Shown: positions 1 to 28,898 of the stretch, in pieces | Layout: every line of letters begins with the position of its first letter | How positions within the stretch are numbered: position 1 is the stretch's first letter | Origin: Elusimicrobiota bacterium | Lineage (GTDB): Bacteria > Elusimicrobiota > UBA8919 | Length of the DNA stretch: 28,898 nt | Direction: 5' to 3' | NCBI GenBank assembly: GCA_043816185.1 | Contig: JBDRIG010000101.1 | Span: 1-28,898 of the forward strand | Notes under the pieces: model-generated | Seen by the model: only the letters and a program-made list of their open reading frames with translations | The model's database searches: none | Told to the model about the DNA's origin: nothing | Program-made: the position numbers and the translations under genes

Positions 1-2
1 AG

Positions 3-710
3 TATTATTTAGCATTATCGATAGTAGCAAAAGAATATACTCCGAATTTGAAAAATAAATATCCAGAACTCGATAGTTTTTTTGAGTATATACGACTAAA
101 TTACAGTATAAATCCAATATATTTAATATTAGAAGAGAAAGCACTTACAAGAAACATTCTTAAGCGATATACTGGCAAGCAGTTAGATAACGAAGTACTG
201 TTTTTATCAGAGATGGGCGAGCATCTGAGAAATTTCTTAGATTTGAAAATTACATACGATGAGTTTAGTTATTTTAGTTCAAATGTTAGCACATTTAAGG
301 TATTACTAAAAAAATATTTTGAAGATGTTGAGGTGGATGATGTAATAAAGTTCGTAGAAAATGAAGAGATATGTTCGTTTTACAAAGTGAATATAGAAAG
401 AGACAATATATTTTATGAAACATTAAGTAAGGAAATAAGTAAGGGAGTTCAGAGTTCAGAGTCCGGAGTTCAGGGTAGTGGTGGTAAGATAACTTTATCT
501 AATGTGTCAAACCCTCAACTTAACGCAGGCGATTACACAGATGTAATAAATAGACTTAAAGAATTTAACGAGATAGAAATAATAGTTACAGGTGGATTTC
601 ATTTCAACCTAACAGAGATGTTGAATAAAAAAGGCATTTCTTATCTCACTATAATTCCTAATGCAACAAAAAAATTTGATGAATCTATTTACGAAAAAAT
701 TATAACTGGT
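3..710 (+). other. C-terminal part of a ChaN/EreA/TraB(Tiki)-like domain, of the type seen near the N-terminus of giant proteins
   Basis: FYKVNIERDNIF (378-413) followed by IIVTGGFH...L...GISYLTIIP (582-659) matches the R-D/N...(hydrophobic)-G-x-x-H ending of this superfamily. The N-terminal catalytic motifs lie outside the window. Confidence 0.5.
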
Positions 711-3700
711 AAAACGGATTTAATAGATTTTATAACATCAGCATTTGCAGCAATGTTGATAAGTGTGGATGTGAATTCTGAATCGCAGCGTGGTTTGATT
801 TTAAGCATAGCAGCATTCTATATGCTGAAGAAAGGCTACTCCAGCGATAAGATCAAAAATATCATAGATGAATGGCGGGAAGTCAACAAAATAGAAGAAG
901 AACTCGTTGTTAATAAGGAAAAACATAGTGTAAAAATTGGAGATGAAGTTTATAAATTTGAAATAAAAGATGGTAAAATAGTGAATATAGTATTAGAAGG
1001 TAAAAGTAAGAGGTTAGAAGAGAAAAAGGTTTCGTTGTCCAATCGTATAGGGGTTAGTGCCTTTATAATCTCAGTTTTTGGTGGGATTGCAACGCTTGTA
1101 TTAAGTAGTCCACTTGGTTGGTTTGTTGGCGGTATATTCGCAGCATTACAAATTGCACAGATTTATTTTATAACCGAAGTGAGTCGAGAAATAGGACAAG
1201 AAGTTGGTTTGATTAATGAATTTGGTGAACTTCCACCACAACAAAAAGTGCGTACTAATAAATTTGTGCCTGCAAAAACAATAGGTGGAGAAATACATAT
1301 TAATTCTGTATTGATGTCCCGCCTACCAGAATGGCTGCAAAGAGTGTATTGGAAACATGAAAATAGACATCTCCAATTTGCTAAAAGCAAATTTGCCCAA
1401 AAACGTCCATTAGCATATAAAATATTTTCCTACGAATTCCTGCCAGATTTATCTATTGAAGAAATTTGTGTCTCATTATTGGAAGTAATTTTTTTAATCA
1501 GAACTACTGATAGTAAATATTGGCCATTGGTTGCTGAAAAATTGGTTGCTGAAAAGTCTGTTGTCGAAAAACGAGCTGCCGAGAAATCGATTGTCAAAGA
1601 GCAAGTTGTCAGAGTATTAAAAACGCTTGGCACAGCACTACGTTCTCCTGTTTTACTTGGTTTGGTTTTGTTATGGGCAATCGCCGCTCAAACGGAATCT
1701 GTTTTGTTAGGTGCTGGTGTTTTTTCAGATAGCATTATTGGCGGCTTGGCTATCGGTATGACTTCATTGTCTGCGGGTAAAACTAAAATTTCAAAAAAGG
1801 AAGCGCAGAAAATTTTAGCAGAATTTGTTCCGAATGATGAAGGTTTTAAATGGCTAAGAAAACCCAATATTGATAAAGAAGAAACAGTATCTGTTACAAA
1901 TAGTAAACCTGGTTTATCGGGATTTTTGAATGAAATCAGTGAACTTTGTCTTAAGGGAGATGAGGGAATTTGGAGTTTACTTTACCATTCAGGACGCGGT
2001 GATATATTAAACTATTTAGTAGACTATTTAGATTTTCTCTCAAAAAAACACCCATATTTTAAAGAATTCAACGATGCTATCAACAATCTTAAAACTGCCG
2101 CAGCGGCGACTGACAACCTGCACGAAAAAGTTGTTTTAAATATAGAAGCAATTTTACTCGCAAATAATCTTGTTAACCGTCTCAACCCTACCGATAAGAG
2201 TGCTAAAGCGAAATTACCGCAATTAGGTGAAGTTAGAATACACAGTCCGCCCGAAAAATTAAGTTTTGGTTATAGAAAAGAGCAATTTAGAAAATTTTAC
2301 GAAAATAAGGATGATAAAGATTATGCAGCATCCGTGGCGGAAACTTTATTTTATTACGGAGGAGATAGCAATGTAATAGATGCTGCCTTACTCCACAAAT
2401 TATCCAAGGAAAAAATTGACGCTGCTTTTGAAGAAGTTGGATTGTCGAGCAAAGACAGAAAAGAAATTTTAGAACTCATCGCCATCTTAGATAGAACCAT
2501 TCAGATTCCATATGGACCTTCCAGAGGTGCTCCGTCAAACACAATTGAAAATCAAATGCTACTTATTTTCCAATCTGTGAAATCCTCGAATGGGTTTCTT
2601 TTAGTAGTGGCGGAGCGATTGTATGCACTTAAAACCGCAGAGAAGGATGATTGCGATGATATTGAAAGTTCTATCCAATTGCAGATTCGGCATATTTATG
2701 GTCCCATAGCAGAAATGCTTGATTTAAAAAATATTTCCAAAGAATTATGGAATCTTTCTTTAGAAAAATTAATTGGAAAAGAAATTTTAGATGAAATAGC
2801 AAAGAGAATTATAGGTGTTTACAATGATAAGGCAATTGAAGAGCAGGTAAGAGATTGGTTAAAAAATAATAACATTTCAAAAGCAGATATTTATGTCCGA
2901 TTAAAAGAACCTTCCAGTATAATAACTAAAATTACCAAAAAGAATATAGCTGAAATAGCAAATGAATTTATCATCAATGATCTTGTTAGTGTGACAATTG
3001 TTTTACCTAATACTGAGGAAGTAGGAAAAGTACGGAAATCAATAGAAGACGACGAAACCATAGGTATACCCGGCAAAAAATTTGTTGAAACTAAACCAAC
3101 AGTCTTGGATTTTACACAGTTTCATTATGAATGTAAAGGAATAGAAGTTAGATTAATGACCAAAGGAGATTATGATAAATATCTGCATGGAAATTATGCT
3201 CACTGGAAATATAAATTATCAAGGGATTTGAGTGCTACAAGACGATTCAAGAATCCTCAAGAGTTTGGTGGTTTTTTGATAGAACTGGGAAAAAACTTTA
3301 AAGAAAATTTTGATAAAGTATACGAATCTGTAAAAGATAAACCAGTTGTTATTAAATATTTAGAAGATGAAACGTTCTTTCCGATTATTGAATTGGAGCA
3401 ATCGCAAGAAGACCAAGGAGACGAATATGATGTTTTTAAACCTGCACAATTTGAAAGATTGAATGAAAAGATTAAAGAATTAAGAAAGAAACAAAAAGTA
3501 GATGTGGAAACTTATTATGATGCTAAAAATGGAAATAGTACGATGTCTATTGAGATTAGTATAAAAAATGATATTCCAGGCTATCTACTTAAAATCTTAA
3601 ACGTGATATTACCGGTAGAACATCTTTTGTCGTATCGTATGTTTATGTCAAAAACAAAAGGAACGGCTGAGATAAGAATTACTATTCCTCATGATATAAA

Positions 3701-6700
3701 AGATGAAGATAAGCGTGCTAAAATAATAAAAGAACTTGAGGAAATTACAGCAAGTAAAGAACAAACAATATATGCTAAAGAATTGATAAAAGAAACAATA
3801 AAAATAGAGGTTATTGCTGATAAGCTCGATAATGTTCGCAATATTTTAGAGGGAATTGCTGGTATAGACAAGCGAATTAATATCAATCATATTGAGGTTG
3901 GAGAATCCGAAAAGGTTGCAATCAATAGCTTCTGGTATATTATTAAAACTGCTGCCACTATTGCGAGAAATGCATTCGGAATTACTCCAGGAATTTCCAA
4001 GAGCGAGAAAATAAGTTTTACATTTGATTTAGGCCTACCAGAAGGAGTAGATTTTGAGACAATTAAAACATCGTTAGAAGAAATTGCTGTAATTTCTGAG
4101 GTTAAGAATTTATCTAAAAAAGAAGAACAAGTACAAAATCCTATTGTTGCAGGAATATTGCCACTCTTAGTAGTTTTCAAAGAATTTCAAAATATATCAG
4201 CAACACTTGCAGGGAAAATACGGCGTTTGTTTGAAGAAGCAACGAATGTTACATCTGAAAAATCATATTACAAAAATTATGCAGATATTTTAAAAGAAAT
4301 TGCTGGTTCTAATGGCATTTTCGTGATATCAGATGCCATAATAATAGAGACAAAGGAGAATCTCAAAGATATATACCCACTTATAACATTGGACGGAAAA
4401 GGAGTTTTAAAAATTGTTAATCTATTCGCAGATTTCATACATAATAATGGCCCACCGCAAAAGTTTGTTGAAATGTCTGATGGAAACGAAAAAGAAGCAC
4501 TTAGAAAATTATTTGGAGCAATACTAAATCATGAACAAATAGAATCGTTTGCCTTAGGTATCATTGATGGTGGTACTAAAAACAAAAGTTTATATGATGC
4601 CTATTCAAAATATCTGGAAGAAATCTCCGAAATTAAGGACAGAAACCACGTAACATTCCATAAATTTCTTGAATATCTTGTCAAATCAGAAAAAAACGAC
4701 GATCAAAACCTCGCAAAGTTAATTAATGCTTCCGACCAGATTATTCTTTTGGAATATGCTGCTGACTTCCTTTGTGAAAAATCAGTAGGTGATATTAGAT
4801 ACAGACTACCAAATGGACAAATTTTACAAATTGGTGCATTAAAAGGTTATGACAAAGTACATAAAAAATTAGGAGTAAAAGCAGCGGATGTTCTTGTAGT
4901 TCAAGATGAGCTCGTTTCATCGTCTAATGAAAATTTATTTCCAGTAATTATGAATATGATATTCGACTACGTGTTTGATATTTATGCTGGCCGCATGTTT
5001 GGGCCTGTATCAGAAACTGACAAACGACCCTGCTTTGTTGTGTTTAATGAAACAGGCGAATGGCCACAAGGAGGTCCACGACTAACACTCGTTGTAACAC
5101 AAAAACAAAAAGAAAAATTAGAAAAGATGATTGCTAATGCCTTTTTGGGACCTGAAAGTGAAAGACCGGAAAAAACATTTTTTAATGTTAACCATATTGT
5201 GAAATTTATTGTAGAAAAAGAAGGTGTTGCTGATTTAGGTAATGATGTAAAATTAAAAGTAGAAAGACAGGAAGATAAAAAAGTTATCTGCAACGTTGAG
5301 GTTAAAGGTGAAACTAAGAAAAAATTGGACTTCGAGAATGCTGTTAAATTTGATTTAGAACTTGGCATAAAACTTGAAAAACCAATAGTTCCACCTGCTT
5401 CAGGAATGGTTGCAGTAACTGTCGGTGCTGGCTCTTTTGGTTCAGAACTTGGAACTATTTTAAATACTTCTCTTCTTGTAATTATAAGAAACAAAGATGG
5501 TTCCTTGACAAGGATTGCTGTTGATCCGCATGGATACTTTGATAAAGTTTTAGAGGAAATGGGTTTATCAACAGATATTGATTATATTATAAATACCCAT
5601 ACACATCCTGATCATTTTGAAGGAACGCTAGAGCAGTCTGCGACCAAAGGTGCTAAACTTATAGCAGCAGGATCTGACCTCAATGGAAAGCGTGATGTAA
5701 AAGAATGTATAAATAATGAAATCGACATACTGTCAAAATTGACAAAACGTAGTATAAAAGATCATTTGCGATTTCTGGAAGGCAAAAAAAATACTGAAAC
5801 TGGGGTTTGGGATTACGAATTGCCTAATGGGACACATATAAAGTTTATGCACGTTGTGCATAGTATTCCTACAGCAGCAATAAGAATAGAGACACCAAAA
5901 GAATTAGGCGGCGGGACATTGATTCATGCACCCGATTTTAAGGAAGCAGAAAAAGATAAAAAATTAATGGAGTTTTTATTTGGTGATGGAGAAAATATTC
6001 CAGATTCAATTTTTATTGATGGAAAAGTAGGCGACCTTGTTCACCAGGACTTAGAAGTACTAATTAAAGAAATTTATTCAAAATATGGTGAAGAAGTTGC
6101 GAAGAAAATATTATCTAAGACGCGACTAATACATTATAGGAATGAAGAAGGACTAAAAAAATATGCAGAGAAAAACAATCTAACTTTGCCGAGTCCGCTA
6201 AAAATTGGTGAAGTTGTTGATGTAGGTGAGGTGGTTCATACTGGCGATGATACAGTTTCAATATTAAAAAGATCAGGTGGGGAAAAAGACGCAGAGCTTA
6301 AGGTAAAAACGAAAGAATTATCGGCATTAACCACAGATGAATTAGTGGATAATTTAAAAGAGAGTATGCCTCCATGTGACGAGACAACTGGTAATTGGGT
6401 TGAATTCAATGAAATAGTAAAGATACTAAAAGACAGAGGGGTACCCATAATGATTGTCGGTACACCTTCTGCAAGAGAAAAATTCGAAGACGCAAATGTG
6501 AATGTAGATGTAGATTATTATCTTCCTAAATACGCATATAAAAATTTTTATAGTTTTCACAATATTGTTTTAGAGATGCTAACTTCGTCAAACAAAATTT
6601 GGGTTGATTCCAAAGAGACAAAAGATTTTCTGCGTTATGCGTTAGAAAATGTTGTTCAGCATGTTGGTGGTGGTATTGTTGCGGTTATAGGGCAAGAACA

Positions 6701-9700
6701 AATTATTGAAAGTGGATATAAATATAAGAAGATTTCCGTTATTGATAATGGTAAAGGGTTTACTTACAAAGAGAGTGGCAAAGAAGTACCGATTAAAGAA
6801 GCAATTAGGCCTAGCACACATCCTGGTGGGCCAGATGGCAAAGGGCTTGGTCTTACCTGTGCGATGGTACCCAACTTAACTGTTGTTAAAACACAGCATG
6901 AAATGGCAATTATAACGCGAATTATGGGCGAAGATGGGTCTTTTTCAATGGTACCCACGGTAGTAAAAAATGTATATTTAGAGCGAAAACAAAAAGGTAC
7001 GGAAATTGTCGGATATTTTTCCAAGCTTGTTGATCTCAAGGAAGAAGAAGCAGCGAAAAAAGAATTATTTTTAGAACTTGAAAAAGAACTTGAAAAAATT
7101 GAATCTGTGGGTGGGGAAAAAGTTTTAGATTTACCAAAATCCGAAAAATCCGAAAAATCTGAAGACAAAAAAGGTAAAAAAATAACAGGTATAATACTTG
7201 CGGCATTAACCACAGTTGGTGCGACATTGATGTCGATGATGTCAGCTGGGACTGTGATGGCGGCGGATGTGGTTACTCGCGGTGCGCAGGTTATAGGGAT
7301 AGTTGAGAAAGGTGATTCGTTGTGGAGTATCGCAAAAGAACGTTTGATAGAGCAGGGCGGAAATCCGACAAATCATCAAATTTGGGATTTTGTTCAAAAC
7401 ATTATTTCACGGAACCCTCAAATTGCTAAGAATCCTAACTCGATTAATATTGGAGCTGAACTTGATTTAGACACAGTTCAACAAGCGGCACGACAAGTTG
7501 TTGAAGTGGGGCAAGATGTTTCAGGAGCGGCACAACGGGCTGTTGAAGTGGGGCAACAGATTCCAGGAGTAGGGCAACAAGCAGTAGAAACGGTTTTGCA
7601 GACTGTTGAACAGGTTTCGCAAACAATTCAAGAACCGTCGTTTGTTCAAAACATTATTTCAACAGTATATTCATATATCGACAGTATATCTTCGTCAATA
7701 CAATATCTTATTAACACAGGAGATATTTGGTATGTAGTGGGGACATTTGTAACAATAGTAGTAGCATTTTTTGGCTGGAAAGCATACAAAAAATATAAGC
7801 AACGCAGGACGGAAAGTCGGGAGATGGAAAAAAAGGTCGGGGGAGAAGTAAAAGAAGAAACTAAAGCGGAAATCAAAGAAAAAGTCGAAGAGAAAAAACA
7901 AGAGATTGAAGAGAAAAAGCAAGAAATTGAAGAGAAAGATAAAATCGAAGTATCTTCGCAAGAACCTCAGAAACAGTCAAAGAAGACCAATACGACTACT
8001 AAAATTATTATTGGTGCTATTATTGGTATTTCGATAGCAGTACTTTTATATTTTACTTTGCCTGAAATAGTTTCTGTTATAAAATCAGCAGTAAACACCA
8101 TTACATCATTTACACCATTCGTAAATGTATCGGTATCAGGTAGTGGTAGCATCTTGCTTGAGATAGGTAGCAATCTTGTCACCACACTATCAGGTTATAT
8201 GCCAACAGTGTTAAAACTTACAGGGTTCACAATAGTTGGCAGGTCAATGTACTATATTTATGATAGGAAACAGATAGAAAAACAATTTGGTTCCGATAAA
8301 GATGTTCCTAAGATAGGTACAGTTGGCGTGTTGTTAAAACTGTTTGGATTCGGGAAATTAGATAAAGATTTAGTTGTTAAACGCCTGGCAAAGCAGTCAG
8401 GTTGGAATGACGAAAAGATAAATGAAACAAAAGAAAATATAAAACGAATAGTGAAGAAAAAACAAAAAGAATCTTCAAGTATTAAAAATGAGAAAGTTCG
8501 AGACATTGCCCTGATTTTAGAGATAGACGAGAATCTCAAAAGATTTGGATTGAGATTTAATGAAGAAGAAATAAAGGTTTTAATAACAAACGCAGAAGAC
8601 GAAATCATTAACGCAAGATTAACCGAGGAGTTAAAAAAACAACACGGTAGATTAACAGAAGAAGAAATTAAAGAAATGACAGGCGGTGTCGAATTGAATC
8701 TATGGTCATGGTTGAAAGTTTTTATTGCTATGAAAAAGCAGCAACTTGACACGCGCGTTAAAATGCGTAAAGCAGCCCGTGAAAAAAGACATGAGGCAGT
8801 AAGAAGCGTTCAGTGGCTCTGGTATTTACTATACGATTTTGGTATTTATGCAATAGACAATGTTGTAGACTTTAAGTTATTTGAAAGAACAAATTTTTTA
8901 GGTAAAAATGCTTACAAAGAAGCATTAAAGTCAGCAATTAAAGGCGAGATAAAATCTCGGAGTAGATATTTTAGTTCCGTTAGGGATATCATTTATGTAT
9001 TAGGATCGACACTGTGGAATTCGTATTTGTTTATTGTGCCTAATGCGGGGATAACATTTATTCGTCAGAGATGGTCATTGGTTGTTCAATCTGAAATAGC
9101 AAGACGTGTTTTTGAGGCAGTAATTACAAAATCTGTTGGCGTAGGGGCTGCCGGTAAAATATTAGGATTTAGTTTTATAGGTAGTCCGTTAGGGATTGCT
9201 CTATTTGTTTCTATTTTTTCTGTGCTATACTTTATTCATACAAGACATGCAAAAGCAGAAATAGACGAGAGTGTAAAAAAAGGTGAAAAGATTACCCCTT
9301 ATATGAAGAAGTATTCAAGATATGTGGTTATGGCAATATTTTTGATTACTATTACACTGTTTTTCCTTCCTACAAATCTATTAGCAGATGTAGTGTCATC
9401 TCCGGTAGCGTCAGATGGAGTTAAGCAGTTTTTTACTATAATCAGTTTAGGTGGATGTTTATCGCTTGGGTTTTTAAGAACATTTTCGCGTTCCTATCGT
9501 GACCATAAATTAAACATAATGTCCAATAGTAGTGAATTTAATCCTACATTGTCTAAAACATATCAGGGAAAAGAAAAACAGGGAGAAGAAAAACAGGGAA
9601 AAGAAAAAAAACCAAAATTGGAGCAGTTATCGTTCAATAAGATACTTGAATTTTTAAACGAAGATAATAAGAAATCATTTTCACAAGAACAAAAGATAGA

Positions 9701-18700: not shown

Positions 18701-21700
18701 AAGTACGATTTCAAAAGATAATCCATACATAGAAAATACAGTACGAAAATATGCTGCTGGACAAATAGAAATTGGTAAAGCTGATACATATACAAAAGAA
18801 TCTTCCTTAATTAAATGGGCTGAAACAGATAAACATGGCAATCCTATTGGCGATCCAATAGAAGAAATTGCTTATGATAAAGTTAATATTGATTTTACTC
18901 AAGCATATTTAACATATACAAATAAAGATATTGCAAATAATACATTTTCCAATGGTAAAATAAACATACTAACAAGTGCTGAGGAGTTTACTATATACGA
19001 TGCTAAAAAAAATAAAATACTAAAAACCGTCAAAACAGCCATTGATTATTATACACTTAGACAAGGGGTAGAAACAAAAAACTATCAAGAAAAATGTATT
19101 GAAAAAGGATTTGTTAATCCATTGTATGGTGTCGGTAATTCTATAAAAACACTTGCTGATGGTAGAATAAAAGAGCAAACAACTTCATTGAATGAGAATA
19201 ATCAACCGTTAGAAGAGTTGATAAAAATCGAAGGCGAAAAAGATCGTCATCAATATTATCAACGTGTTGAACATTTGCTGGAGCACAAAGTATCTAAAAT
19301 TATTTTTGATTCTCCGTGTGGTGATAAAAAAGAAACTATAAAATATGCCATCAATCCTCGTAGAGAGTCTATGGATTGGATTGAAAAAATTCAACATAAT
19401 ATAAAAAATGAAGATGGTAAATATTATAACGAAACTACCTTCCACGATACCAGATTTGCTTCGAAAAGCGATGGCAGATTTGCTTCGGAAAGGTTACTTT
19501 ATAAAGATGGCCCGATGGTAGAAAGAGATGAGTGGGATGAAGGAGTAAATGTTTCGCATACCACAGTGGAAAAAGTTGGTAACGAAATGGTTACAACAGT
19601 AAAAATGCTTAAAGACAATGTTACAATCGAAATTTATAGGGATTCGAGGTATGGGTTTATAACGAAAATTAAAGCTAAAAACAGCATAATTGGGGAGGAA
19701 ACTTTAGTTTTAACATCAGAAGATGGTCAACATTTTGTCGGCGAAAATAAAGAAAACGGTCAAACTATTATAAAAGATTTATTGTTTGTCAACGGCCCTG
19801 AGATAAGTTGTATTATTAAAGAAAGAATGGGCGGGCTGTTAGAAATTGTTAGCAAAACAAGTACAATTACTAATCCTGATGATGGTACAATAGAACAAAT
19901 TATTGATAAACCAAAAGACAATGAAAGAACCACTATCAAACTTCTTTGGTTAGAAGGGCCAGGCTATGAAAAAAATACAATCAAAAATAGTATACATATT
20001 GCTCATTTAGAAAGCAACGATTTTGGTATGATATGGGAAGGGCATAATCCGTCTATGTCTATCAAAGATTCGAAAATTGTAGAAAAAGCAAGATATTATG
20101 GTGGAGCATTGGTTGAGGGTTATACTGAGATACTTGGCGATAGAGTAAGCGAATGGAAACGAACAGATAACGACGATGGCTCCACAACATTTATAACGAA
20201 TGATCCAGTAAAAGATATAGAGACAAAAATTAGATTTACGGCTGGGTGTAAGAATTCGTATCGCAAAACAATAACTGAAAAAGGAGTCATAGAAGCAGAT
20301 TTATCAAGTGAAAATTCAGGATTAACATGGTCTGGTAAAAATCCATATACAAAAGAAAAGATCTTTGAATCTGCGATTTATACTGGTGGTGGAAATGTAG
20401 AGGGATATAGAGAGATCAACGGTACAAGGACTTTCGAATGGCAGAAGGTTAATACCGATACAAAATCAACAGTTTATTCAAAAAATTTCAGAACATCGTT
20501 GAGTATGATACAAGATTTTCTTTATGACAGCGGACAGATGAAAAGCGAATCGGAAAAAGATTGGACTGGTAAAACTCGGTCCAGATTAGAATGCGATGGT
20601 TACGGTAGATATGAAATTAAACGCAATTTTGGTAAACTTAAAGGGTTGCAAAGTGAAGAGATGTATAGATATAACAAGATGCATTTGAAGCAAGTAGATA
20701 CAACCGATAAAACAGGTGAAGGTAAAAAAATACCAGTATCAGTATCAGCATTCTATGATAATGTTGGCAGAGTAGAAAATGGCGAGGAATTTTTTTATGA
20801 TCCGCAGACAGGAAAGTTAGAAGGAAAATACACATTTAACAACAAATTTGACGGTAGATTTTTGATTGAAAAATCTGGGAAAGACAACGCAGAAAATGAT
20901 GTATATAAAATACAATATAACAAATTTCAAGAACCCGAAGTATTACAATTTTTTAACAAAGGTGGCGGCTTGATAGAAAACAAGATTTTCGCATATACAC
21001 AGGGAATGGTTTTATCGGGGATTAGTACTTATGATGGGATAAGCGGAGCAAAAATTGCTGAAGATAGATGCAATAATCGCGGACAAATAACCGACAGTTA
21101 TATTATTTACTATGATAACACCACAAAAATAGAAATTGGTAGGGATAGAATTAAGCATTTTTACGATGGTTATTATAAAACTGGTTGGAGCGAGTTTGAT
21201 AACGAGAATAAAAATACTGCGAACGGAATTTGTGACCAGTTTGAGAGACCGAAAACCAAGACTGTTTTAGGATTTGAAGAAGAGGTAAAAGAGGAAGTTT
21301 GCTACAGCTACAATCAATATAATGGTATGATTGAATCAGTAACCGATGTGTTTGATAAAATAAGTCCTACTGGGAAAAAAACTAGGCAAAAAATTCGTCA
21401 AACGGAAAACAATGGCTTCGGTAAAGTGAAGATAGGAAGTATTTTTGAGTACAATGACGCCACAGGCGAGCAGGAAGGGAAAGTACTCAACAAATATGAG
21501 TACGATGGTTTTTTTACGAAATCTTCAAATGAAAAATATGTAGATAAATCGGGTAATAAATTTGATGTTTCAGAAACAACGTTTGATTCCAATAATAGAG
21601 AAGCAAACAAAAAACTTTTTGATCGCGATGGAAAAACAAAAATAAATTTCACCTATGAATACAATAATTTCAATAGCACAATAAAGGCAAGAACCAAGGG

Positions 21701-24700
21701 ACGAAACGCCCACGACAAACTTATTTTTGTGGGAGAACACAATTTCCGTGGTCAAGAAGTAAGAGCACAAGAATTGCATTATTTTAATAAATTAATATTT
21801 GACAGTCTTCCTCAAGACGAGAAAGAACTCTACGCCGCCTGTTTTGGTATGTCAGCCGAAGGAATGGGGCAGTTGGAAAATGGTAGCGGGTTTTCTCCAA
21901 AAATTGTTACAAAGGACTACAAGGGAAAATTTTTGAGAGCAGAAACACATTATAATACCGACGAAAAAAGTTTGGTAATGATGAAAATAGGATACGATCA
22001 ATATGAAAGACGAATAAATGTTCAAAAACCGTATCTTGAAGTAAAGGATGATAAGGTTGTTCCAGTCACCCGTGCTTATAGAGAAAGTTTCTACACAGCA
22101 GAACAACCTACATATAACAAATACAACAGTATGATTCCTTCTGAAATATTAAAAAATGTATGTCATGAGAGTGCAGATAAAAAGATAGGATTCACTAAAG
22201 AAGTGGCTAAATGTAATTCTCATGGTTCACCAGTGAACGAATATAAAATTGGTAATGATGGCAGAGAAGTTATATTTGCCAAAACTACTTATTTAGGTAT
22301 AAACAAAGAAAAAAGAATAGAATATGAAAATAGTAGAAATATTAAAACTTCTGATGACGGAAAGAAAAGTGTCTCGTATGATAATGATCCACTGGTACCA
22401 AATGTAATTTTGTCACGGGTATCAAATGTAATTTTGTATGATGCGCAAGAAAAAGACGATTCTTTCACAAAATTTGTATATGGTATAGCTGACGAAAATG
22501 GCAAGATTGTGATAGTGGATGGGTTAGGAACATCGGTAATGGATGAGGATGGGGGTGGAAAGTGGAAAGGACACACTGTTGTTAAGATTGGCGAACAAAA
22601 AGGAAAAAATTATTACAACAACGATGGTTCGTTAGCGTTTGTAATGATTGACTGTTTAGTTGACAAGACGAAAAAAGATATTATTTATTATGACAAAAAT
22701 AGACAAGTAACACATATTGTGAGAACACAAGTAGAAAAACAAGATATAGATAAATTGCCTACTCGTATTGGAACAGGAGATATACTTGTTGAAAACACAA
22801 ATGTTGATGGATTCAGGGTAGGACAAAAAGAGTATAATTTTGAAGATCTTAGGCTCCTTGGTTCCTACAACGAAGGTTGGTTTAGCCCATATGGTGATTT
22901 AATAGAGCTTAGGTTTAACAAAAACACCTTGAATGAAAAATCCGAAATACCACTTATTTTACAGAGATACATACAACATCATGATGGAACAAGCGAAATC
23001 TGGACGTACAATAAAAATGTGTTAGAAGAAATAACATACATTGACGAATTTGGTTGTATGAAAGGAAAAAAATATGTAAAAGAAGGAAGGAGTGAAGATG
23101 TTATTACTGCATATGGTTCGTATCCAGTGGCAACAGTATCTCGCAATGGAGAAATTTTAGAAGAAACAACTTTCAAAGCAATAGTAAGAAATAATAAAGT
23201 TCTCACAGAACCAGATACTGTAAAAAAAAGTGGCATCGTAAGAGGGGCTATTGCAGGAGCTGTTTATGGAGCAATTGTCGGTGCTGTAGGATGGTTTGTC
23301 ACTTGGTTGTTTAATATAAATCGTCTGCAAAAAGGAACAAAAACTTCTGCACTCTTTTCTCGCGGATTCTTTTCTACTTGCTTATCAGTTGCGGTAGGGG
23401 GTGGTTTAGTTTTTGCGGCTGGCTATTTAATACCTGCCAATATTTTCTGGTTACCAACTGGCAAATTGTGTGGTATATGTACTGCCGTAATAATATATTT
23501 ATTAGGTTCATTTGGAATCAAGCATTTTTTGCCAATTATGCCCGAAAAAATGAGAAGACACAATTATCTTCTCCATTGGGCATTACTTGCAGGTGCTGTG
23601 TTGGCATTCTTTGCCGTGCCTGGTTTATTACAAGATAGTATATCTAATGCCCCGTTATCGTTTATTGGTGACTTTTTCAAATATACTAGTGAATCTTTTT
23701 TTGATTTTGTACAACCGCTCATCGATTCCTTGTCCCAATTACAAACCAATGCTTCTCATCCTGTCGTTGGTAATAAAAGTACTTTTCCTTTATTTGCTGG
23801 ATTTACTATTTTCGTAGGAAAAACATTCCAACAAAAAAATAGACCATCAACGATATTGTCAAAAATCCCAGAAACTACAAAAGAGATTGACAATAACAAA
23901 TATATAATTCCAAAACTAAAAGAACATATTTTTTTGGGAACCAGCAAAAAAGCGTTTCCATTATTTCCTGTAATCTTAAAAAATTTATTAGGATTTTTGA
24001 AAATTCAGAGCTATATAACGCCACAGACTGACAAACTTGCGGCCTGTCTATACTTGCAACGTGAAACCAAAAAAATTACAAAAGAGCGAGAAAAAGCCAA
24101 CGAGGTAATATCTGAATTAGAAAAACAAATAATAGAATTAAACAACGAAACTGAAATATTAAAAAAGAATGTTGTGAATGATAAAGGCGAGACAGATGCC
24201 ACAAAATTAAACGATGCAGAGACAAAACTAAAAAAAATTGACAAGAAGCGTAAGGAAGCAAGAAAAGAGAAACTTAAAATACAAGATGAAGAAATCGTGG
24301 CTACGACAAAAAAGTTAGATGAATTGAAGGAAAAAAACAATTTGGAAGAGATTTTGGCCAATGTGCAGAAAAATTTAAAATACACGGAGAAAAAAATACG
24401 GAAATTGAAGGCTAAAGAAATGAAAATAAAAAAAAGTGACAAATATAAAGATCAAAACAGTGAAGTTAATAAAAACAGTAAATTTAATAAAAAAAAAGCA
24501 GAGGTGAAAGCGGTAAATGATAAGATAAAAGCCAGAGAAGAGAGTGGTGTCAAAATAAAAAAAGTAATAGAAAGGATTATTACGGATGAAAAATTTAATT
24601 TTATTACTTCAAAAAAGCGCGAATTAAACGGAAGATTAAAAATATTGCTAAGTAAAAATGTAAAAACTGACGCGAAAGAAACACTTAAAGGGCTTTTAGA

Positions 24701-27700
24701 AGAAGAAGATAAAAAATTAAAAAAACAAGAGTTAGAAATGGCTAAAAAGTTTACAAATAAGATGATACAAGAAATGGATAAAGAAATAGCAAAATCAGTT
24801 GCTGATATTGATAAAGAAACAGATGAGGCAAAGAAACTGAAAATGATAAAAATTCTGGTAGCGAAAGAGCAAGAAAATCAAAAAATAAAATCTGCAATAA
24901 AGAATATGGTGGAAGAAATAACAATTGAAAAGTTGGTTAAATTGAGAAAAGCTTTAATAGACGATAAAGAGTATAAAAATTTAGAAAAACAGCAGGCGAA
25001 ACTTAGAAAAGAACAAAAAACTCTTAAAGATGGAGGAATAAATTATAAGTCAGAAATGATAATAAAGAACAGAGAACTTTATGAGAGAGATTTAGAATAT
25101 TTCAAATCGAAGAATAGTAAGGCCAAATTGGAAGAATATATTGAATCTCTTAAAGAAGAACTAAAAAAAGACACAGGATATAATGAGTTTAAAAAACGGA
25201 TTCGGCTGGCAGATATTGAATTTAAATCATTAGAAAACATCGATGACAAACAAAAATTAGTTGATGTTATGAATCTTAAAATCGAAGAGATTGATCGTTT
25301 ACAACAAAAAATTCCAAAAGTTGGTGTTTTTGATTCATTAGGAGAAGATTTAGAGAGAATATATGGAGAATGTTTTAAGCATATAGCAATCTTATCAAGT
25401 GGCGAGACAGTACAAAAGCAAATTGCTGAATTATTTGACCCTACTGCAAGGTTGGCAACCGAAGAAGAAGAAGTGAAAAAAGAAGAAGAGAGTTTAATTA
25501 AAAAAATTGTACAAAATTTGTCATTATTTGAGAAACATTTGCGAAATACTCCTGAATATTTTGACATAAAAAAAGCAGATGAATTAATAAAACTTATATC
25601 AGGAATCGAAACAATTTTCCAGAAGTCTGAGTTGGAAAAATCAGACATTGAATCTGCTAAAGAATTGTTACAGAAAAACAACGATTTTGTTGGTGGTGTT
25701 TTTGTGCACGTGTCGCAAGTTGTGAAAGAATTTATAAAAACCGAGTATGTTAAAATCAACACTGAGTGCAATAAAATTGATAAATCAGAAATAGAAGTTT
25801 TACTTAAAATTTTAGCAAACTTTTTAGGGGAGGTGGGGTTGCGGCCCGATAATATTGATTCTGCTGAACAATCATTAAAAGGATTTACAAAAATCCTTGA
25901 AAACTTAAATGGAAAAGTTGACGAGTTTAAGTCAGTGAGCGAAGGGTTGGAAGGTTATAAGAAGATACTGGAAAAAGAGATAGAAAGTGCTTCTAAACGC
26001 AGTGTCGCCGAAGTGAGAGAAAAGTTGCAATTCGTTATGAACGATTTTGAAGAATGGGCTGATGGTGGAATACTTCTTCCCGAAGGGCTTATTCCTTCTA
26101 CCAAAACACGATTATTTAGAATACTTCAGTTTGTGTTTCAAGCGGTATTTATATGTGTAATTCTTACTATAAATGGAACTCATTGGTTTGTATCTCCGGT
26201 GTTGTTATTTATTGGTTTCTATATATTGAATGCAGTGATAGAAAAATGGATAATTTCTTTGATGGATAGTGGTTCTAAGGGTTTAGGATCTGCTCCAGTC
26301 GGTCATCCCAGAATTTCTATTGGAGAATTAAAATATAAAGTTGAGCAACACTATCGAAAAACAGAACAACCTTATACAGTCTCCTTGATGAAGGCAAAAT
26401 TTTCTGGCAACAAAAAAGATGTAGATGGTTTAACTAAGTTTTTATATGATGATATAGAAAAAATGAAGCCAACATTAGATTTATTAGGTGATCATTTTAA
26501 GTTGGTTTTTGTTATTCCTGGCAACACAATAGGTAGTCCGAATGATAGTTCAAAATTTGTCGATAGTCTTCTTGATTTAGAACAAAAGAAAGTGCTTGAA
26601 ATGAAGAATGAAATTGAAAGAATTTCCAATAGTAGAGCATCGCTTGTATACCTACACTATAATATGAACAACGACAGTACTGTTTTGTCGAGTATGAAAA
26701 AACCGTTTCAACAAATGATGGCAGCGGACTTTATTGTTAGTGGTGATAGTAAACCAAGAAAATATATAAATAAAAAGTTGCTTGGTGCTTCACAAAATCC
26801 TGATTTGCCAATTTTTGATATAGTAGGAGGCGATGTTTTGTCAATGTTTGGTGGTAAAGTAAAAATTGGAAATAAGGAAATTAAAGACAATGAAGAATTA
26901 ATTGAAGCAATTAAAAAAGGAGAGAAAGTAACAACTTTTGATACACTTGTACCAGAGTTTTGTTTGATACAGGATGATAAAAATATATGGGAACATGGTA
27001 GCATCGAATCAGCGTTGCGAGTAATGATGCATCCAGAAAACAAGCACATAATTATGGGAACACCGTTTATTGAGGTCGATTATCCTACGGATGAATATGG
27101 TGAACCAATGACCTCGTCGTGGCTATCTACCATGAAATATAAACGTTCGTTTCACAACGAGTCAACTGAAGCATCGAGAGCGTGGATATATAATAGGTCA
27201 GGATCGGTTTACGGGAAATCAATTGTGCGACTTCGTCCATATGTTAGAAAGATTGCCAACGAATTACTACTTCCAAAATATTGTCTTTCACATGACTGGC
27301 AAGAAGGGATTTTTTCTTGGGCAGAATTGTTGGGTGGTTCTGTAAATTATAAAATTATAAAGAGGGTGAATGATAAAGACGGGAATAAGGTTGTTGTTAT
27401 AGAAGTAGGAAACGAAATTGAAATCTATAAGTTTAAAAAAGTAAAAGAAGATGAAAAGAACGTTATTAAAATGTCTAGGGTAGTTGCTGATGTAAAGGAT
27501 GGATCGCCATATTCCAAAGAAGTAGAGTTGAGAACTTTTAAGGAATTTTTAGAATTTGAGTATGAAGATTCTAGTGGAGAAAAACATAAAAATGAGTATA
27601 TGGATTTTGATACTACAGTGAATCTTATATCCGACCGTTTCATCCATGATGCTGTTCGTATGACCGAAAGAGATATGTTGTCTTTTATGGCGGTGTTTTT

Positions 27701-28898
27701 AAGAGATGTTCGTTGGCTACCTGGTGATATGCAAATGATAAAAACAGGACAACCATATCTTGATATGCTTCCTCCAAGAGCGGCATTGCATTATGATGGA
27801 CTAGAAAGACGGTTTCTTGCAGATTCAAGTTTTCTTTTATGGATTGTTATTGGAGGTATAGTATTTTACGGTCCAGCCAGTATATCATCCATAAGAACCT
27901 TAGGAAAAGCACTTGATCCTAATTTAGCAATTGCCTCAACGATATTAGCATTGTTTTTAATTATCGGTGTAGACAATCTTGTTGCACCATTCTCTTATTT
28001 TCTTAAAGAGAAAAAGCGTCTCAATGAAGATCTGAGTTTGTCAACGATAAAAGGACTAAAAAATTGGGGGGCTTTAATCTTTAATTCATTATGCTTTATG
28101 CTTGCAGCAACAGTTACCACAACAATTGTTTCGTTACCAAATTTAATTATAGGTGTGCGTGGAGCGTTAAGAGTTATTTGGAAAGATAGAGCAAATCAAA
28201 CACCAGACTGGGGCGAACTAACCAATTCGATTGTTGCCATCAAAGAACGAGCAGGATTCCACTTTAATGAATATATGGAGCATTTTGGTATTGCATTGAA
28301 AGTTGGATCATGGACACTGGGAATAGGGATTATTTTATCAGTCCTTGGCTACGCAAACTTTTCAATGTTTTCTTCACCTGGTGGATGGTTTGTTTATTTA
28401 CTCGTGTTTATAGTGGGACCAACGCTTGGTATGAAATTGACAGGGATAAGTACAAAAGATATCCAAAAACATATGTCTCCTTGGCATTTAGTTTTATTTT
28501 CTATAATTTTAGGTGCTTTAATATGGTCATTCTTCACTTTTTACGGATGGACTTTAATTTTTTCTAATTCAGAAATATTGCCATTAGTCTTTATTGCACT
28601 GGTGGCAGAAGTGTGTGCGTTCCTTGGTATTGAGCGACTAAAGAATGTGAAACTAATGGAAAAATTAAAGAATATAAAACTGTTGAAATGGTTGTTGTCG
28701 AAAACAACCACAACTCGCTCTGATATAACGGCGAAGAAGTCATATTCCTTAATAGGCAACGCAGCTGCTGCGGCAATAAGTGGGTTGGTAGCATTATTAG
28801 GATTGAGTTTAATCCCTGGATTAGGGTTGGTTGTAGGTGTACCATTTGCTTTGATAGGTGGATTTTATGCTGTAATATTGACGACACAGTTGTTAATA
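3..28898 (+). CDS. Giant multidomain membrane protein, partial at both ends (>=9,632 aa)
   Basis: Frame 3 reads YYLALSIVAKEYTPNLKNKYPELDSFFEY... at the start and ...GGFYAVILTTQLLI at the end. I met no stop in hand translation. The ORF track lists no frame-3 + ORF, whereas any in-frame stop would have closed a long one. 30 of 42 minus-strand ORFs, spread from 1163 to 28541, share one register (start = 2 mod 3), as expected for shadows of one unbroken frame. Recognisable motifs occur in this frame throughout. Confidence 0.96.
444..478 (+). repeat. Imperfect 7-bp tandem repeat
   Basis: ggagttc agagttc agagtcc ggagttc agggtag. Confidence 0.75.
1047..1176 (+). other. Transmembrane hairpin
   Basis: IGVSAFIISVFGGIATLVLSSPLGWFVGGIFAALQIAQIYFI. 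Confidence 0.75.
1260..1500 (+). other. Small zincin-like (HEXXH) metallopeptidase domain
   Basis: Strand EIHINS, helix LPEWLQRVYWK, HENRH (1356-1370), and a downstream EE (1458-1463) as candidate third ligand. Confidence 0.55.
1527..1601 (+). repeat. 15-bp in-frame tandem repeat
   Basis: LVAEK LVAEK SVVEK RAAEK SIVKE; ttggttgctgaaaa occurs twice exactly. Confidence 0.8.
2310..3215 (+). other. Degenerate RelA/SpoT homologue N-terminal region (HD-like domain plus (p)ppGpp synthetase-like domain)
   Basis: RSH motifs in colinear order: VAETL..GGD..IDAALLHK (canonical AALLHD), VVAERL (KLADRL), IYGPIAEML (IYAPLAHRL), RLKEPSSIITK (RxKxxxSxxxK), INDLVSVTI (IxDxxxxR), FTQFH (YxSLH), EVRLMT (ExQIRT), GNYAHWKYK (GxAAHWxYK). 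Confidence 0.9.
3540..4110 (+). other. Two ACT-like domains
   Basis: SIEISIKNDIPGYLLKILNVI...AEIRITI (DxPG ACT signature). Then IKIEVIADKLDNVRNILEGIA...ININHIEV...ISFTFDL...LEEIAVISEVK, which resembles the RSH C-terminal ACT/RRM with an insertion. Confidence 0.6.
4790..6230 (+). other. Metallo-beta-lactamase-fold hydrolase (RNase Z / cyclic-nucleotide phosphodiesterase-like) with N-terminal extension
   Basis: Full motif series: IAVDP, NTHTHPDHFEG (HxHxDH at 5598-5615), VVHSIPT, IHAPD, LVHQD, RLIHY. The upstream LQIGA...Q...AFLGP...IVPP segment resembles the extension of cNMP-associated MBL proteins (by-eye resemblance). Confidence 0.88.
6615..7020 (+). other. GHKL / HATPase_c ATP-binding domain
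   Basis: N-box ALENVVQH (6639-6662), G1 ISVIDNGKGF (6732-6761), G2 GKGLGL (6837-6854), terminal KGTEIVGYF. Confidence 0.88.
7299..7469 (+). other. LysM peptidoglycan-binding domain
   Basis: IVEKGDSLWSIAKERL...VQNIISRNPQIAKNPNSINIGAELDL. It lies between a signal-like hydrophobic segment (7182-7262) and a TM (7725-7779) followed by KAYKKYKQRR, so it is likely extracytoplasmic. Confidence 0.9.
7485..7595 (+). repeat. 42-bp in-frame tandem repeat after LysM
   Basis: AARQVVEVGQDVSG AAQRAVEVGQQIPG VGQQAVETV; tgttgaagtggggcaa occurs twice. Confidence 0.8.
7725..9480 (+). other. Multi-pass inner-membrane block
   Basis: Hydrophobic helices IWYVVGTFVTIVVAFFGW, IIIGAIIGISIAVLLYFTL, ILGFSFIGSPLGIALFVSIFSVLYFI, YVVMAIFLITITLFFL and FFTIISLGGCLSLGFL, separated by charged loops. 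Confidence 0.75.
9564..9608 (+). repeat. 15-bp tandem repeat x3
   Basis: cagggaaaagaaaaa cagggagaagaaaaa cagggaaaagaaaaa (QGKEK QGEEK QGKEK). Confidence 0.9.
10255..11390 (+). other. Lys/Glu-rich helical coiled-coil region followed by a Pro/Thr/Glu/Lys linker
   Basis: Heptad-like charged helices to about 11160, then VSPQASQLTPSGTKKIVPSTILSPETKEVAPPVLPPVLPEIKEVVP...QPEKPK. Confidence 0.7.
11391..12566 (+). other. Putative outer-membrane beta-barrel, internal to the ORF
   Basis: About 390 aa of short amphipathic strands with alternating hydrophobic residues and tight turns (YTVKIDA, IKLTINYD, VSLTPHIELQY, IKLDLNYY, GVGGTVALTHKL, VSVGVF, GAGAEYNRGNWSWEVIY). It ends in KVKAAFNFSYGF, a typical terminal Y-x-F beta-signal strand. 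Confidence 0.62.
13420..17780 (+). other. Long degenerate alpha-helical repeat (solenoid-like) region
   Basis: Recurrent motif (L/I/V)DLxxPxxxxxLxY(W/Y): LVLTNPYGNDTNLLLSW, LDLTNPFGNDSILLAF, LDLSKDSDKYVLLYY, LDINNPQDRVKLMYW, VDLTDPENAYFDL, LDLTTPEGKGVLSYW, LDPTNKNDSGILSYW, ILTDDKDRSELEYY. Confidence 0.65.
16347..16680 (+). repeat. 64-aa (192-bp) tandem duplication with an identical 31-nt core
   Basis: caaacattagatattggtgtgggtaaagcag at 16446-16476 and 16638-16668; the protein pattern LSYW....TGK..W/Y.DE....QTLDIGVGKA occurs twice. Confidence 0.9.
17790..23210 (+). other. YD/RHS-like beta-hairpin repeat region (~1,800 aa)
   Basis: Y/T/E/K/G-rich strand-turn-strand sequence with YD-type units: TQYDSLGREV, FYDNVGRV, FYDPQTGKL, YNDATGEQ, LFDRDGKT, GYDQYERR, YYNNDGSL, YYDKNRQV. 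Confidence 0.7.
19700..20490 (+). repeat. Three ~98-aa protein-level beta repeats
   Basis: LTSEDGQHFVGEN (19710), LESNDFGMIWEGHNP (20007), LSSENSGLTWSGKNP (20301); YYGGALVEGYTEILGDRVSEWKR versus YTGGGNVEGYREINGTRTFEWQK. Confidence 0.75.
23232..23820 (+). other. Multi-pass membrane block beginning with a glycine-zipper helix
   Basis: GAIAGAVYGAIVGAVGWFVTWLF, then LSVAVGGGLVFAAGYLI, LCGICTAVIIFLLGSFGI, LLHWALLAGAVLAFFAVPGLL and FPLFAGFTIFVG. Confidence 0.8.
24060..25310 (+). other. Long Lys/Glu-rich coiled coil (~415 aa)
   Basis: Pro-free, highly charged helical sequence (RETKKITKEREKANEVISELEKQIIELNNETEILKK...). Further helical sequence continues to about 26050. Confidence 0.8.
26100..28898 (+). 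other. Membrane-embedded processive glycosyltransferase of the OpgH(MdoH)/Cgs(NdvB) beta-1,2-glucan synthase type, with flanking TM helices
   Basis: TM pair at 26110-26250; FCLIQDDKN (DxD position, 26973); MMHPEN...MGTPFI (Cgs HPLN...LQPRV); VYGKSIVR (Cgs GKGIY); CLSHDWQEG (27282-27308; OpgH LSHDFVEA, Cgs LSHDLxEG); RDVRWLPGDMQ (27702-27734; OpgH RDRRWxxGNLQ, Cgs RxHRWxRGDWQ). Many TMs follow from 27830 to the window end. Confidence 0.8.

Follow-up and report, generated by a model that had tools for sequence, protein, structure and literature searches.

We analysed a stretch of DNA of 28,898 nucleotides, called the window below, which is the whole of contig C101 in the Elusimicrobiota metagenome-assembled genome (MAG) G000 (1.44 Mb in 112 contigs, 94% complete, 0.54% contamination). 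A single reading frame of 9,632 codons without any stop fills it from end to end. Because the window is the entire contig, this frame ends at the contig ends on both sides without flanking DNA, and the window is thus an internal fragment of a giant gene. The fragment starts inside a conserved N-terminal domain, which we call the head and which is shared with many other giant genes of the phylum, and it ends in a module with the predicted fold of a membrane-embedded processive glycan synthase. The positions of these and all other features are collected in Table 1.

Table 1. Features of the 28,898-nucleotide window (aa, amino acid residues of the open frame; nt, nucleotides; TM, transmembrane).
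Feature	Position in window	Strand	Evidence
Stop-free frame of 9,632 codons; internal giant-gene fragment cut on both sides by the contig	3..28898	+	ORF list including open-ended ORFs, translation
Stretch of 141 nt with which contig C106 also begins, identical in both; apparent assembly-graph branch between two paralogous head-bearing genes	1..141	+	Contig-end comparison, tblastn
Second half of the conserved N-terminal head, aa 1-345	3..1037	+	Alignments, motif coordinates, phylum profile search, fold
First hydrophobic clusters, aa ~349-392 and ~551-597, with a HExxH string between them	1047..1793	+	Kyte-Doolittle scan, motif coordinates
Divergent RelA/SpoT-homologue region: HD_4-like, aa ~774-907, and synthetase-like, aa ~966-1072	2322..3218	+	Pfam, NCBIfam, PDB
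Metallo-beta-lactamase-fold-like region with intact HxHxDH string	5478..5957	+	Pfam, PDB sequence search, motif
Hydrophobic cluster, aa 2394-2412, 2573-2591 and 2668-2686, enclosing a LysM-like stretch, aa ~2433-2488	7182..8060	+	Hydropathy, NCBIfam, Pfam
Hydrophobic pair, aa 3057-3075 and 3108-3126	9171..9380	+	Hydropathy scan
Central region of ~4,600 aa without hydrophobic segments	9393..23222	+	Composition, TM scan
Hydrophobic cluster of four segments, aa 7744-7874	23232..23624	+	Hydropathy scan
Highly charged region, Lys+Glu 0.37 in aa 8001-8400	23850..26102	+	Composition
Predicted membrane-embedded processive glycan-synthase module, aa 8690-9632	26070..28898	+	HMMER, AF2, Foldseek, motifs

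A stop-free frame along the whole contig

An earlier sequence-only reading of the window had claimed that one stop-free frame fills it, in AT-rich DNA where random stops would be frequent, and both statements hold. Frame +3 contains no in-frame stop and is listed only among the open-ended open reading frames (ORFs). At the base composition of the window (A 0.39, T 0.28, G 0.20 and C 0.13) the chance of a stop is 0.086 per codon, so that about 830 stops would be expected over the length of the frame, against none seen (log10 P of no stop about -377). The remaining five frames hold 259, 584, 600, 897 and 1,054 stops, and their longest open run is 291 codons. When the window was divided into ten segments of 2.9 kb, the codon usage of frame +3 correlated at 0.89-0.96 in each segment with that of long ORFs in the rest of the genome, compared with 0.45-0.69 for the two off-frames. 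The order GC1 > GC2 > GC3 was kept in frame +3 in all ten segments, and the GC content is even along the window (0.30-0.37).

The 5′ end of the contig lies in a sequence shared with a second gene of the same genome. The first 141 nt are identical to the start of C106, a contig of 5.7 kb. Beyond them the two encoded proteins share 46-56% amino acid identity over aa 1-253, after which similarity is lost. The C106 frame (L120:3-5039, + strand) closes after 1,679 codons and encodes the second half of the head followed by a body unlike that of the window, with a UDP-glucose pyrophosphorylase domain (E 1.7e-15). To judge from the sequences, the shared start looks like a branch of the assembly graph, that is, a near-identical upstream stretch of two paralogs that the assembler could not assign. 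Among the contig ends of the bin, the head end of C101 has a terminal overlap with C106 only, and its tail shares no overlap with any contig end when matches as short as 10 nt are counted. The missing 5′ part of the head was not found in the bin, either by tblastn with the N-termini of seven relatives or by a head profile search. Draft assemblies conceal such genes in this way: C101 breaks exactly where two paralogs share sequence, and the window gene is therefore absent from ordinary ORF lists.

The conserved N-terminal head and its gene family

In the aligned relatives, the full head measures about 650 aa and consists of a basic stretch, a hydrophobic anchor helix and a domain of about 560 aa, with the family motifs IQDLHxH, YLEGA, GRLTGAEY, FYKxNxxRNxxF, TGGFH and ITPN. 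The half present in the window carries FYKxNxxR..F at aa 126-137, TGGFH at aa 195-200 and IPN at aa 217-222. All 11 invariant columns of the head (F, Y, N, R, F, GGFH and PN) fall in this covered half, and all are kept. Many frames of 520-10,988 aa from elsewhere in the phylum are 28-37% identical to window residues ~5-390. The head is N-terminal, after a hydrophobic anchor helix, in all of 27 relatives, and in the same 27 a distance of 288-335 aa separates an upstream ATG, itself behind an in-frame stop, from the counterpart of window aa ~1-19; in the head-bearing protein P0004 the equivalent of the window start is residue 270. Many of the relatives' head genes have GGAGG ahead of the ATG, and many are preceded by a T-run. 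From the 27 relatives, about 290-335 codons (about 1 kb) are missing at the 5′ end of the window, in agreement with the earlier supposition that the start is not far upstream.

Sequence searches did not place the head in a known family: no fitting Pfam family was obtained for 29 members at E <= 1, and a PDB profile search gave no relevant match. DUF1722 recurs in nine of the 29 members (best E 1.6e-5). In the predicted structure, the matched segment lies within a helical insert of about 260 residues that splits an alpha/beta core, and structure comparison matched this core at moderate Z to the ChaN/erythromycin-esterase (Ere) fold, the solved structures being a haem-binding protein and esterases. 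On this model the head is probably an alpha/beta domain of the ChaN/Ere type that a helical insert interrupts. It differs from the ChaN/EreA-C fold group in its N-terminal anchor, its giant body, its helical insert and its lack of a sequence-level family match. We take this fold group to be related to Tiki/TraB/PrgY/GumN, which include proteases.

A scan of species-representative genomes with an alignment of 13 head sequences yielded 299 confirmed head-encoding stretches in named genomes. The best 80 of the 299 all lie in records of Endomicrobia, Endomicrobiaceae, Elusimicrobia or Elusimicrobiota, many of them MAGs from termite gut or rumen. Within a set of 151 genomes spread over the phylum, the head profile matches 51, including G000 itself at E 4.7e-79. 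By family, these comprise 32 of 44 genomes in Endomicrobiaceae (f4) and members of 13 further families, while none of 45 genomes in f7 is matched.

Single genomes hold many such genes. A complete single-contig genome of ~1.8 Mb has 12 head-bearing frames of 1,976-9,030 aa, with a sum of 44,828 aa or ~7% of the genome, and in a genome of ~3.4 Mb the 18 distinct frames reach 12,656 aa and sum to 122,474 aa or ~11%; these shares were summed from the listed frames, and the genome sizes are possibly rounded. At the named loci, 63 of 79 head frames are open at the edge of the locus and 11 close at 1,070-3,840 aa. The other five were set aside, having frames of 6-221 aa at the match start that are probably due to a frame offset or to broken copies. 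By a crude test, a same-strand ORF ends at most 300 nt ahead of the start of the head gene in 54 of 72 loci (of L040-L118). Most of these small upstream ORFs encode 159-220 aa and have a hydrophobic stretch at both termini; 44 of the ORFs are similar to one or more of the others. A homolog of this small partner was not found in the G000 bin, where the matches came from larger, unrelated upstream ORFs.

As far as the sequences tell, this is a large paralogous family in which the head is the only conserved part and each paralog has a different, mostly unrecognisable body. In the literature on giant proteins, Endomicrobia and Elusimicrobia, preprint supplements aside, we found no mention of a ChaN/Ere-like head or of a giant family defined by a head, and none of the related terms is present in PMC11257099. 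The head, a conserved, well-folding domain that defines hundreds of giant genes, could be used as a query in searches, as an antigen or as a target in assays.

One head-bearing relative, locus L053 from Ca. Endomicrobium neocapritermitis, carries a SecA_DEAD/ResIII-like domain (E 7.6e-7) at body residues 294-689 after the head. It sits about where the window has its RelA/SpoT-homologue-like block, and it ties the family to SecA-bearing giants of Omnitrophota. Among the bodies of 14 relatives this is the one with SecA_DEAD, and a weak SecA match was found in L007.

The terminal glycan-synthase module and the body of the protein

The terminal module comprises 943 aa, with two TM segments, a soluble GT-A domain of about 520 aa and then at least eight hydrophobic segments that run to the contig end. 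It contains the strings DDKN (aa 8991-8994), SHD (aa 9096-9098) and RxxRW..GD (aa 9234-9242). An HMMER search of 1.84 billion representatives found 39 relatives at E <= 0.001, 14 of them at E <= 1e-30; some are proteins of ~1,000-1,300 aa and others lie inside proteins of 4,762-7,397 aa. The module had no PDB sequence match and, by word index, no relatives of ordinary length; given the 39 relatives found by HMMER, we judged the word index too insensitive.

An AF2 model of the module, built from 26 sequences, reached pLDDT 76.8 and pTM 0.79 and is confident to about residue 820. Foldseek returned nine matches at E <= 0.001, led by Cgs (8rf9 and 8rf0; E 2.5e-9 to 4e-8, TMq 0.42-0.46 over ~850 columns) and followed by hyaluronan synthases (HAS), plant and bacterial cellulose synthases (CesA, BcsA) and chitin synthases, with probability 1.00 to Cgs, HAS and BcsA. 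Within the module family, the D is conserved in 22 of 22 sequences, SHD in 22 of 22 and RxxRW..GD in 15-17 of 17; the strings may correspond to the D, DxD, TED and QxxRW motifs of processive glycosyltransferases. No Pfam GT2 or GT84 match was obtained in the window, and among 18 module homologs scanned with Pfam only P0036 reaches Glycos_transf_2 (24.5 bits, cut-off 23.3). The leads from the Atlas point to Glyco_trans_2_3 with a score of 0.75.

From the fold matches and the conserved strings, we conclude that the modelled module is a membrane-embedded processive glycan synthase, and it is probably active. With Cgs, HAS, BcsA, CesA and the chitin synthases it shares TM helices, a cytoplasmic GT-A domain and a TM bundle, the likeness being closest to Cgs, and its conserved RxxRW-type string and acidic motifs may be equivalent to theirs. 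It differs from Cgs in having only ~10% sequence identity to it, in a beta-sandwich inserted within the catalytic domain (model residues ~427-508) and in standing at the end of a giant-protein fragment; the phosphorylase and cyclase domains of Cgs were not seen in the window. The module, confidently modelled and motif-complete, could be expressed by itself.

The head and the module occur together elsewhere. The head profile matches four of the 39 module homologs (P0004, P0039, P0017 and P0021), and an 8,801-aa frame of genome G064 holds both. The pair thus recurs in one chain, with spacers of ~800 to >5,000 aa. Among the 150 other genomes of the phylum, the synthase module was found in five, always in frames of 3,871-8,801 aa. 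P0039, a partial protein of 1,262 aa with the head and the start of the synthase, is labelled as coming from a Candidatus Aenigmatarchaeota MAG and lies on a 3.8-kb contig; this archaeal label reflects either a binning error or a cross-domain occurrence.

The sequence-only reading had also held that the gene continues downstream, which fits both the open end of the frame and the unfinished run of TM helices. The module lies 14-240 aa from the protein end in P0003, P0006, P0009, P0011, P0007 and the frame of G014, and other relatives extend 650-3,500 aa beyond it. A candidate for the missing 3′ end is contig C18, on which a 5′-open frame of 2,393 aa (L119:1-7182, +) carries GGDEF (E 1.8e-41), trehalose-phosphatase, a glycogen-phosphorylase segment, GH77 4-alpha-glucanotransferase and GDE_C amylo-1,6-glucosidase. 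It was singled out because the 4,980-aa protein P0002 joins a synthase module (residues 1209-2038) to a C18-like C-terminus: over its last ~1,360 residues it shares 35% identity with the C18 frame, and ...LLGAG is the C-terminus of the two. This link comes from one homolog, with no sequence overlap between C101 and C18, and we regard it as close to an even bet, on these sequences, that C18 is the continuation of the window gene, which would then measure at least ~12,300 aa. The UDP-glucose pyrophosphorylase of C106 and the alpha-glucan and trehalose enzymes of C18 give the giant-gene pieces of this bin a sugar theme.

The bin contains further giant frames without a head: one of 7,136 aa internal to C99, two 5′-open frames of 3,097 aa (C67) and 1,516 aa (C93), and one of 3,419 aa on C24 that runs off the contig end and is accompanied by an ORF of 1,768 aa. 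A region of about 200 aa in the C99 frame (aa ~6480-6720) matches three repeats in P0008, a protein from an Elusimicrobiota MAG.

After the head, the fragment has a body of 9,287 residues with about 21 hydrophobic segments, as counted by a Kyte-Doolittle hydropathy scan. They are clustered at aa ~349-597, 2394-2686, 3057-3126, 7744-7874, 8705-8746 and 9271-9613. The loop of about 150 aa between the first two clusters contains the HExxH string HENRH (aa 452-456, window 1356-1370). We do not read it as a metalloprotease: no metalloprotease family matched, and the string may have arisen by chance.

The first recognisable block of the body is a divergent RelA/SpoT-homologue (RSH)-like region. It scores 26.5-26.8 bits with Pfam RelA_SpoT (cut-off 27), 22-23 bits with HD_4 and E 2.4e-5 with the NCBIfam GTP diphosphokinase model, all below the curated cut-offs, and it has weak colinear PDB matches of ~290 residues to solved RelA/Rel (E 0.035-0.24). 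The position of the HD dyad reads H-K (aa 798-799, in AALLHK at aa 794-799). By eye, the synthetase strings are partly kept: the DxxGxR-like string deviates at its G/R and the ExQxR-like string at its QxR, both strings being named after what we take to be the RSH synthetase motifs. The block thus has the colinear order of HD-like and synthetase-like parts known from RelA/SpoT homologues, and differs from them in lying inside a polytopic giant.

The metallo-beta-lactamase (MBL)-like region follows. Its string THTHPDH (aa 1865-1871) aligns to the same string of glyoxalase II (1xm8, E 0.0099), and Pfam Lactamase_B and B_2 are below cut-off. The LysM-like stretch matches the NCBIfam LWXIA domain at E 1.6e-5, below cut-off, and Pfam LysM at E 0.02. 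Strings resembling the G1 and G2 boxes of GHKL ATPases were noticed by eye at aa 2248-2284 (DNGKGF and GKGLGL; window 6744-6854). The reading of aa ~2230-2330 as a GHKL ATPase was dropped, as neither Pfam (E <= 0.1) nor the PDB sequence search backs it.

The long centre is Lys/Glu-rich at aa ~3600-4400, helical-looking and weakly repeated at aa ~4560-5560, and beta-rich with much Gly, Tyr, Asn, Asp and Thr at aa 5901-7740. For this last part the first Atlas match is an RHS_repeat cluster (0.84), a lead only; Pfam gave no match, the PDB sequence search nothing relevant, and no match was found in the 150 other genomes of the phylum. The charged region further downstream is, by its composition, probably a coiled coil. 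The pieces aa 3001-6000, 6001-9000 and 8501-9632, when searched against 40 related genomes, gave one weak, zero and one weak match, respectively, both inside other giant frames. A word-indexed search found no giant-length relatives for aa 1-5000.

Internal repetition is slight. The whole window has nine tiny DNA tandem arrays and six weak internal protein repeats, of which the clearest lie at aa 5446-5559 (52% over 50 aa) and aa 6623-6828 (35% over 111 aa), the sole ones of this kind in 9,632 residues; at the protein level both are local tandem duplications. Segments aa 5885-6012 and aa 9106-9213, from the start of the beta-rich centre and from the beta-sandwich insert of the synthase, share 26.5% identity over 132 aa (E 0.002). 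Domains of non-ribosomal peptide synthetases (NRPS) and polyketide synthases (PKS), i.e. condensation, adenylation, KS, AT and carrier domains, were absent at Pfam E <= 0.1 or NCBIfam E <= 0.01. The few weak repeats and this domain content agree with the earlier view that the gene encodes neither an NRPS/PKS nor a simple repeat adhesin. The same reading counted more than ten unrelated modules, of which five types are backed by evidence (head, RSH-like, MBL-like, LysM-like and glycan synthase) and the rest are not; the TM clusters and the regions defined by composition come on top of these five.

Interpretation and relation to known giant proteins

We assign a probability of about 0.8 to the reading that the window comes from the interior of a real giant gene of the head-defined family and ends in a processive glycan synthase. 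As to what the product does, the likeliest mechanism, offered tentatively and at somewhat less than even odds from our analysis, is that of a membrane-anchored envelope machine that makes and extrudes a glycan. The chain would be threaded about 20 times through the cytoplasmic membrane, with soluble blocks alternating between inside and outside. The cytoplasm would hold the nucleotide-using blocks, namely the RSH-like and MBL-like regions and the synthase's catalytic domain, and the head, the LysM-like stretch and the TM-free centre of 4,600 aa would lie outside. The terminal module would polymerise sugar from a nucleotide sugar and extrude the chain via its own TM channel; Cgs, BcsA and HAS extrude their own polymer in this manner. 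The huge external region might act as a scaffold or an adhesive coat at the surface, and regulation of the envelope machine might fall to those cytoplasmic modules that resemble nucleotide signalling.

Several points weigh against the reading of the window and its product given above. Contiguity and translation as a single chain are predictions from the assembled sequence. About 82% of the residues have no assignment, and of the assigned parts the RSH-like and MBL-like regions stay below curated cut-offs, the former with an altered HD dyad and partly kept synthetase strings. The topology comes from a crude hydropathy scan, and, counted by eye, the hydrophobic segments that separate the head from the RSH block are even in number; this conflicts with a head outside and an RSH block inside, unless one of the segments is not a TM helix. 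The identity of the sugar and any surface role are guesses. The synthase module was found in none of the 44 Endomicrobiaceae genomes searched and is therefore not family-wide.

The remaining points of this kind concern the genome to which the contig is assigned. The head was found in none of the 10 other genomes of the window's own family (f1), including the same-genus genome G001 (78% complete), against its frequency in Endomicrobiaceae and its presence in 13 further families. The three body pieces searched likewise had no match in G001. When the 51 contigs of at least 10 kb are ordered by how near their tetranucleotide composition is to the bin mean, C101 comes 43rd, which is within the range and near its edge. 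Since no head was found in these 10 genomes, C101, together with C106, could come from another Elusimicrobiota lineage by mis-binning, or could have been acquired recently by G000, the gene being real in either case. We consider this unlikely. The codon usage of all segments follows that of the rest of the bin, and contamination is low. The giant-gene contigs C18, C24 and C99 lie still further out in tetranucleotide space, so that the offset of C101 may reflect giant-gene composition. Moreover, G001 is incomplete, and giant genes often fail to assemble.

The product might instead be a polyprotein, a single translated chain cut into separate proteins, with the head as a processing enzyme or maturation factor. 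Such a polyprotein would be compatible with the reading of the gene that we prefer. A head that is alone conserved across hundreds of otherwise unrelated bodies is what would be expected of a shared maturation or handling function, and the core matches the ChaN/Ere fold, with invariant His, Glu-containing and Arg motifs in the head. For giants of Omnitrophota, cleavage by N-terminal C39/S8 peptidases has been proposed by West-Roberts et al. in the part of the preprint available to us (10.1101/2023.11.21.568195). However, neither Pfam nor the PDB profile search detected a protease family in the head. The solved structures that its core matches are not proteases, the connection to Tiki/TraB being our own presumption, and an exported head could not reach the cytoplasmic blocks. 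We hold a polyprotein to be rather improbable but a live alternative.

A third explanation, which we rate as quite improbable, is a pure surface adhesin or fibre for attachment to cells or particles, in which the enzyme-like blocks would be degenerate relics. The TM-free centre with its charged, helical and beta-rich parts, the Atlas lead to RHS-repeat clusters, the LysM-like stretch and the loss of the HD dyad in the RSH-like region are in its favour, and published giants have been interpreted as adhesion proteins in the accessible portion of the same preprint (10.1101/2023.11.21.568195). However, the synthase keeps every family-invariant catalytic string and folds with confidence, and the HxHxDH string of the MBL-like region is intact. 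Further, no adhesin, Ig, cadherin or RHS family matched in Pfam at E <= 0.1, and the protein is not repetitive.

Least probable by far is an assembly artefact, i.e. an in-frame chimera of at least two giant genes joined at a shared repeat: the bin is fragmented, holds several giant-gene pieces and has, at the 5′ end of C101, a demonstrable graph branch shared with C106, but apart from the C106 head no part of the protein matches other contigs of the bin in tblastn, which together with the few and weak internal repeats leaves no repeat for a mis-join, while a random join would keep strand and frame 1/6 of the time, codon usage and GC are uniform, and long contigs carry relatives that are complete at 9,030-12,656 aa, in one case within a single-contig genome.

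A bolder picture, which we put forward as a long shot, takes the head as a phylum-wide chassis. A dozen or more paralogous giants, amounting to 7-11% of the DNA, would each carry an exported, catalytically active head on a fast-evolving, freely reshuffled body able to bear whole cellular machines; the body of the window would hold the synthase and the signalling modules and perhaps, should C18 be its 3′ end, a diguanylate cyclase and a complete alpha-glucan and trehalose enzyme set, and the head would act on the chain or on the polymer as a shared maturation function. If true, it would mean that small-genome bacteria construct and diversify their cell envelope on a new principle. A head that works as a common maturation enzyme, or a body that works as a membrane-tethered glycan factory, would, if real, explain why about a tenth of a genome is spent on such genes.

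Giant polytopic proteins of uncultured small-genome bacteria are recognised as a class, and in the text available of PMC11573180 the Elusimicrobiota ones are without a functional assignment. For Omnitrophota, West-Roberts et al. described mosaic giants of the polytopic kind in 2023 (10.1101/2023.11.21.568195), and this work was extended in 2026 (10.64898/2026.06.07.730766), both as far as the accessible parts of these preprints go. The portions at hand also note proteins of at least 10,000 aa in Elusimicrobiota (10.1101/2023.11.21.568195) and an enrichment of this phylum in proteins >5,000 aa without COG assignment (PMC11573180). The sequence-only reading had placed the window gene in a class of very large multi-enzyme, multi-TM genes, and this placement is borne out by a multi-TM mosaic giant in an Elusimicrobiota genome, a phylum for which such genes are noted in 10.1101/2023.11.21.568195 and PMC11573180.

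The closest comparison is with the Archaeovorin-type giants of Omnitrophota, as described in the parts of those sources that we could consult. Both have one huge ORF in which TM segments alternate with soluble blocks, divergent enzymes that include glycosyltransferases, an N-terminal region without identifiable domains, a length that is mostly invisible to HMM libraries, and small-genome hosts of the PVC group. The window differs in its host, an Elusimicrobiota bacterium, and in its size of 9,632+ aa (up to 12,656 aa in the family), compared with a threshold of at least 30,000 aa. Most Archaeovorin-type giants have divergent SecA_DEAD/SecA preprotein-binding domains, whereas a Pfam scan of the window, cut into 32 overlapping chunks, found none at E <= 0.1. 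GT5/GT1 glycosyltransferases are listed for them, whereas the window has a predicted membrane-embedded processive synthase. Finally, the window family is defined by its conserved ChaN/Ere-like head, and no such head is mentioned for Archaeovorin-type giants in the text available. Our verdict is that the window gene probably works like the known giant polytopic proteins, without their specific marks.

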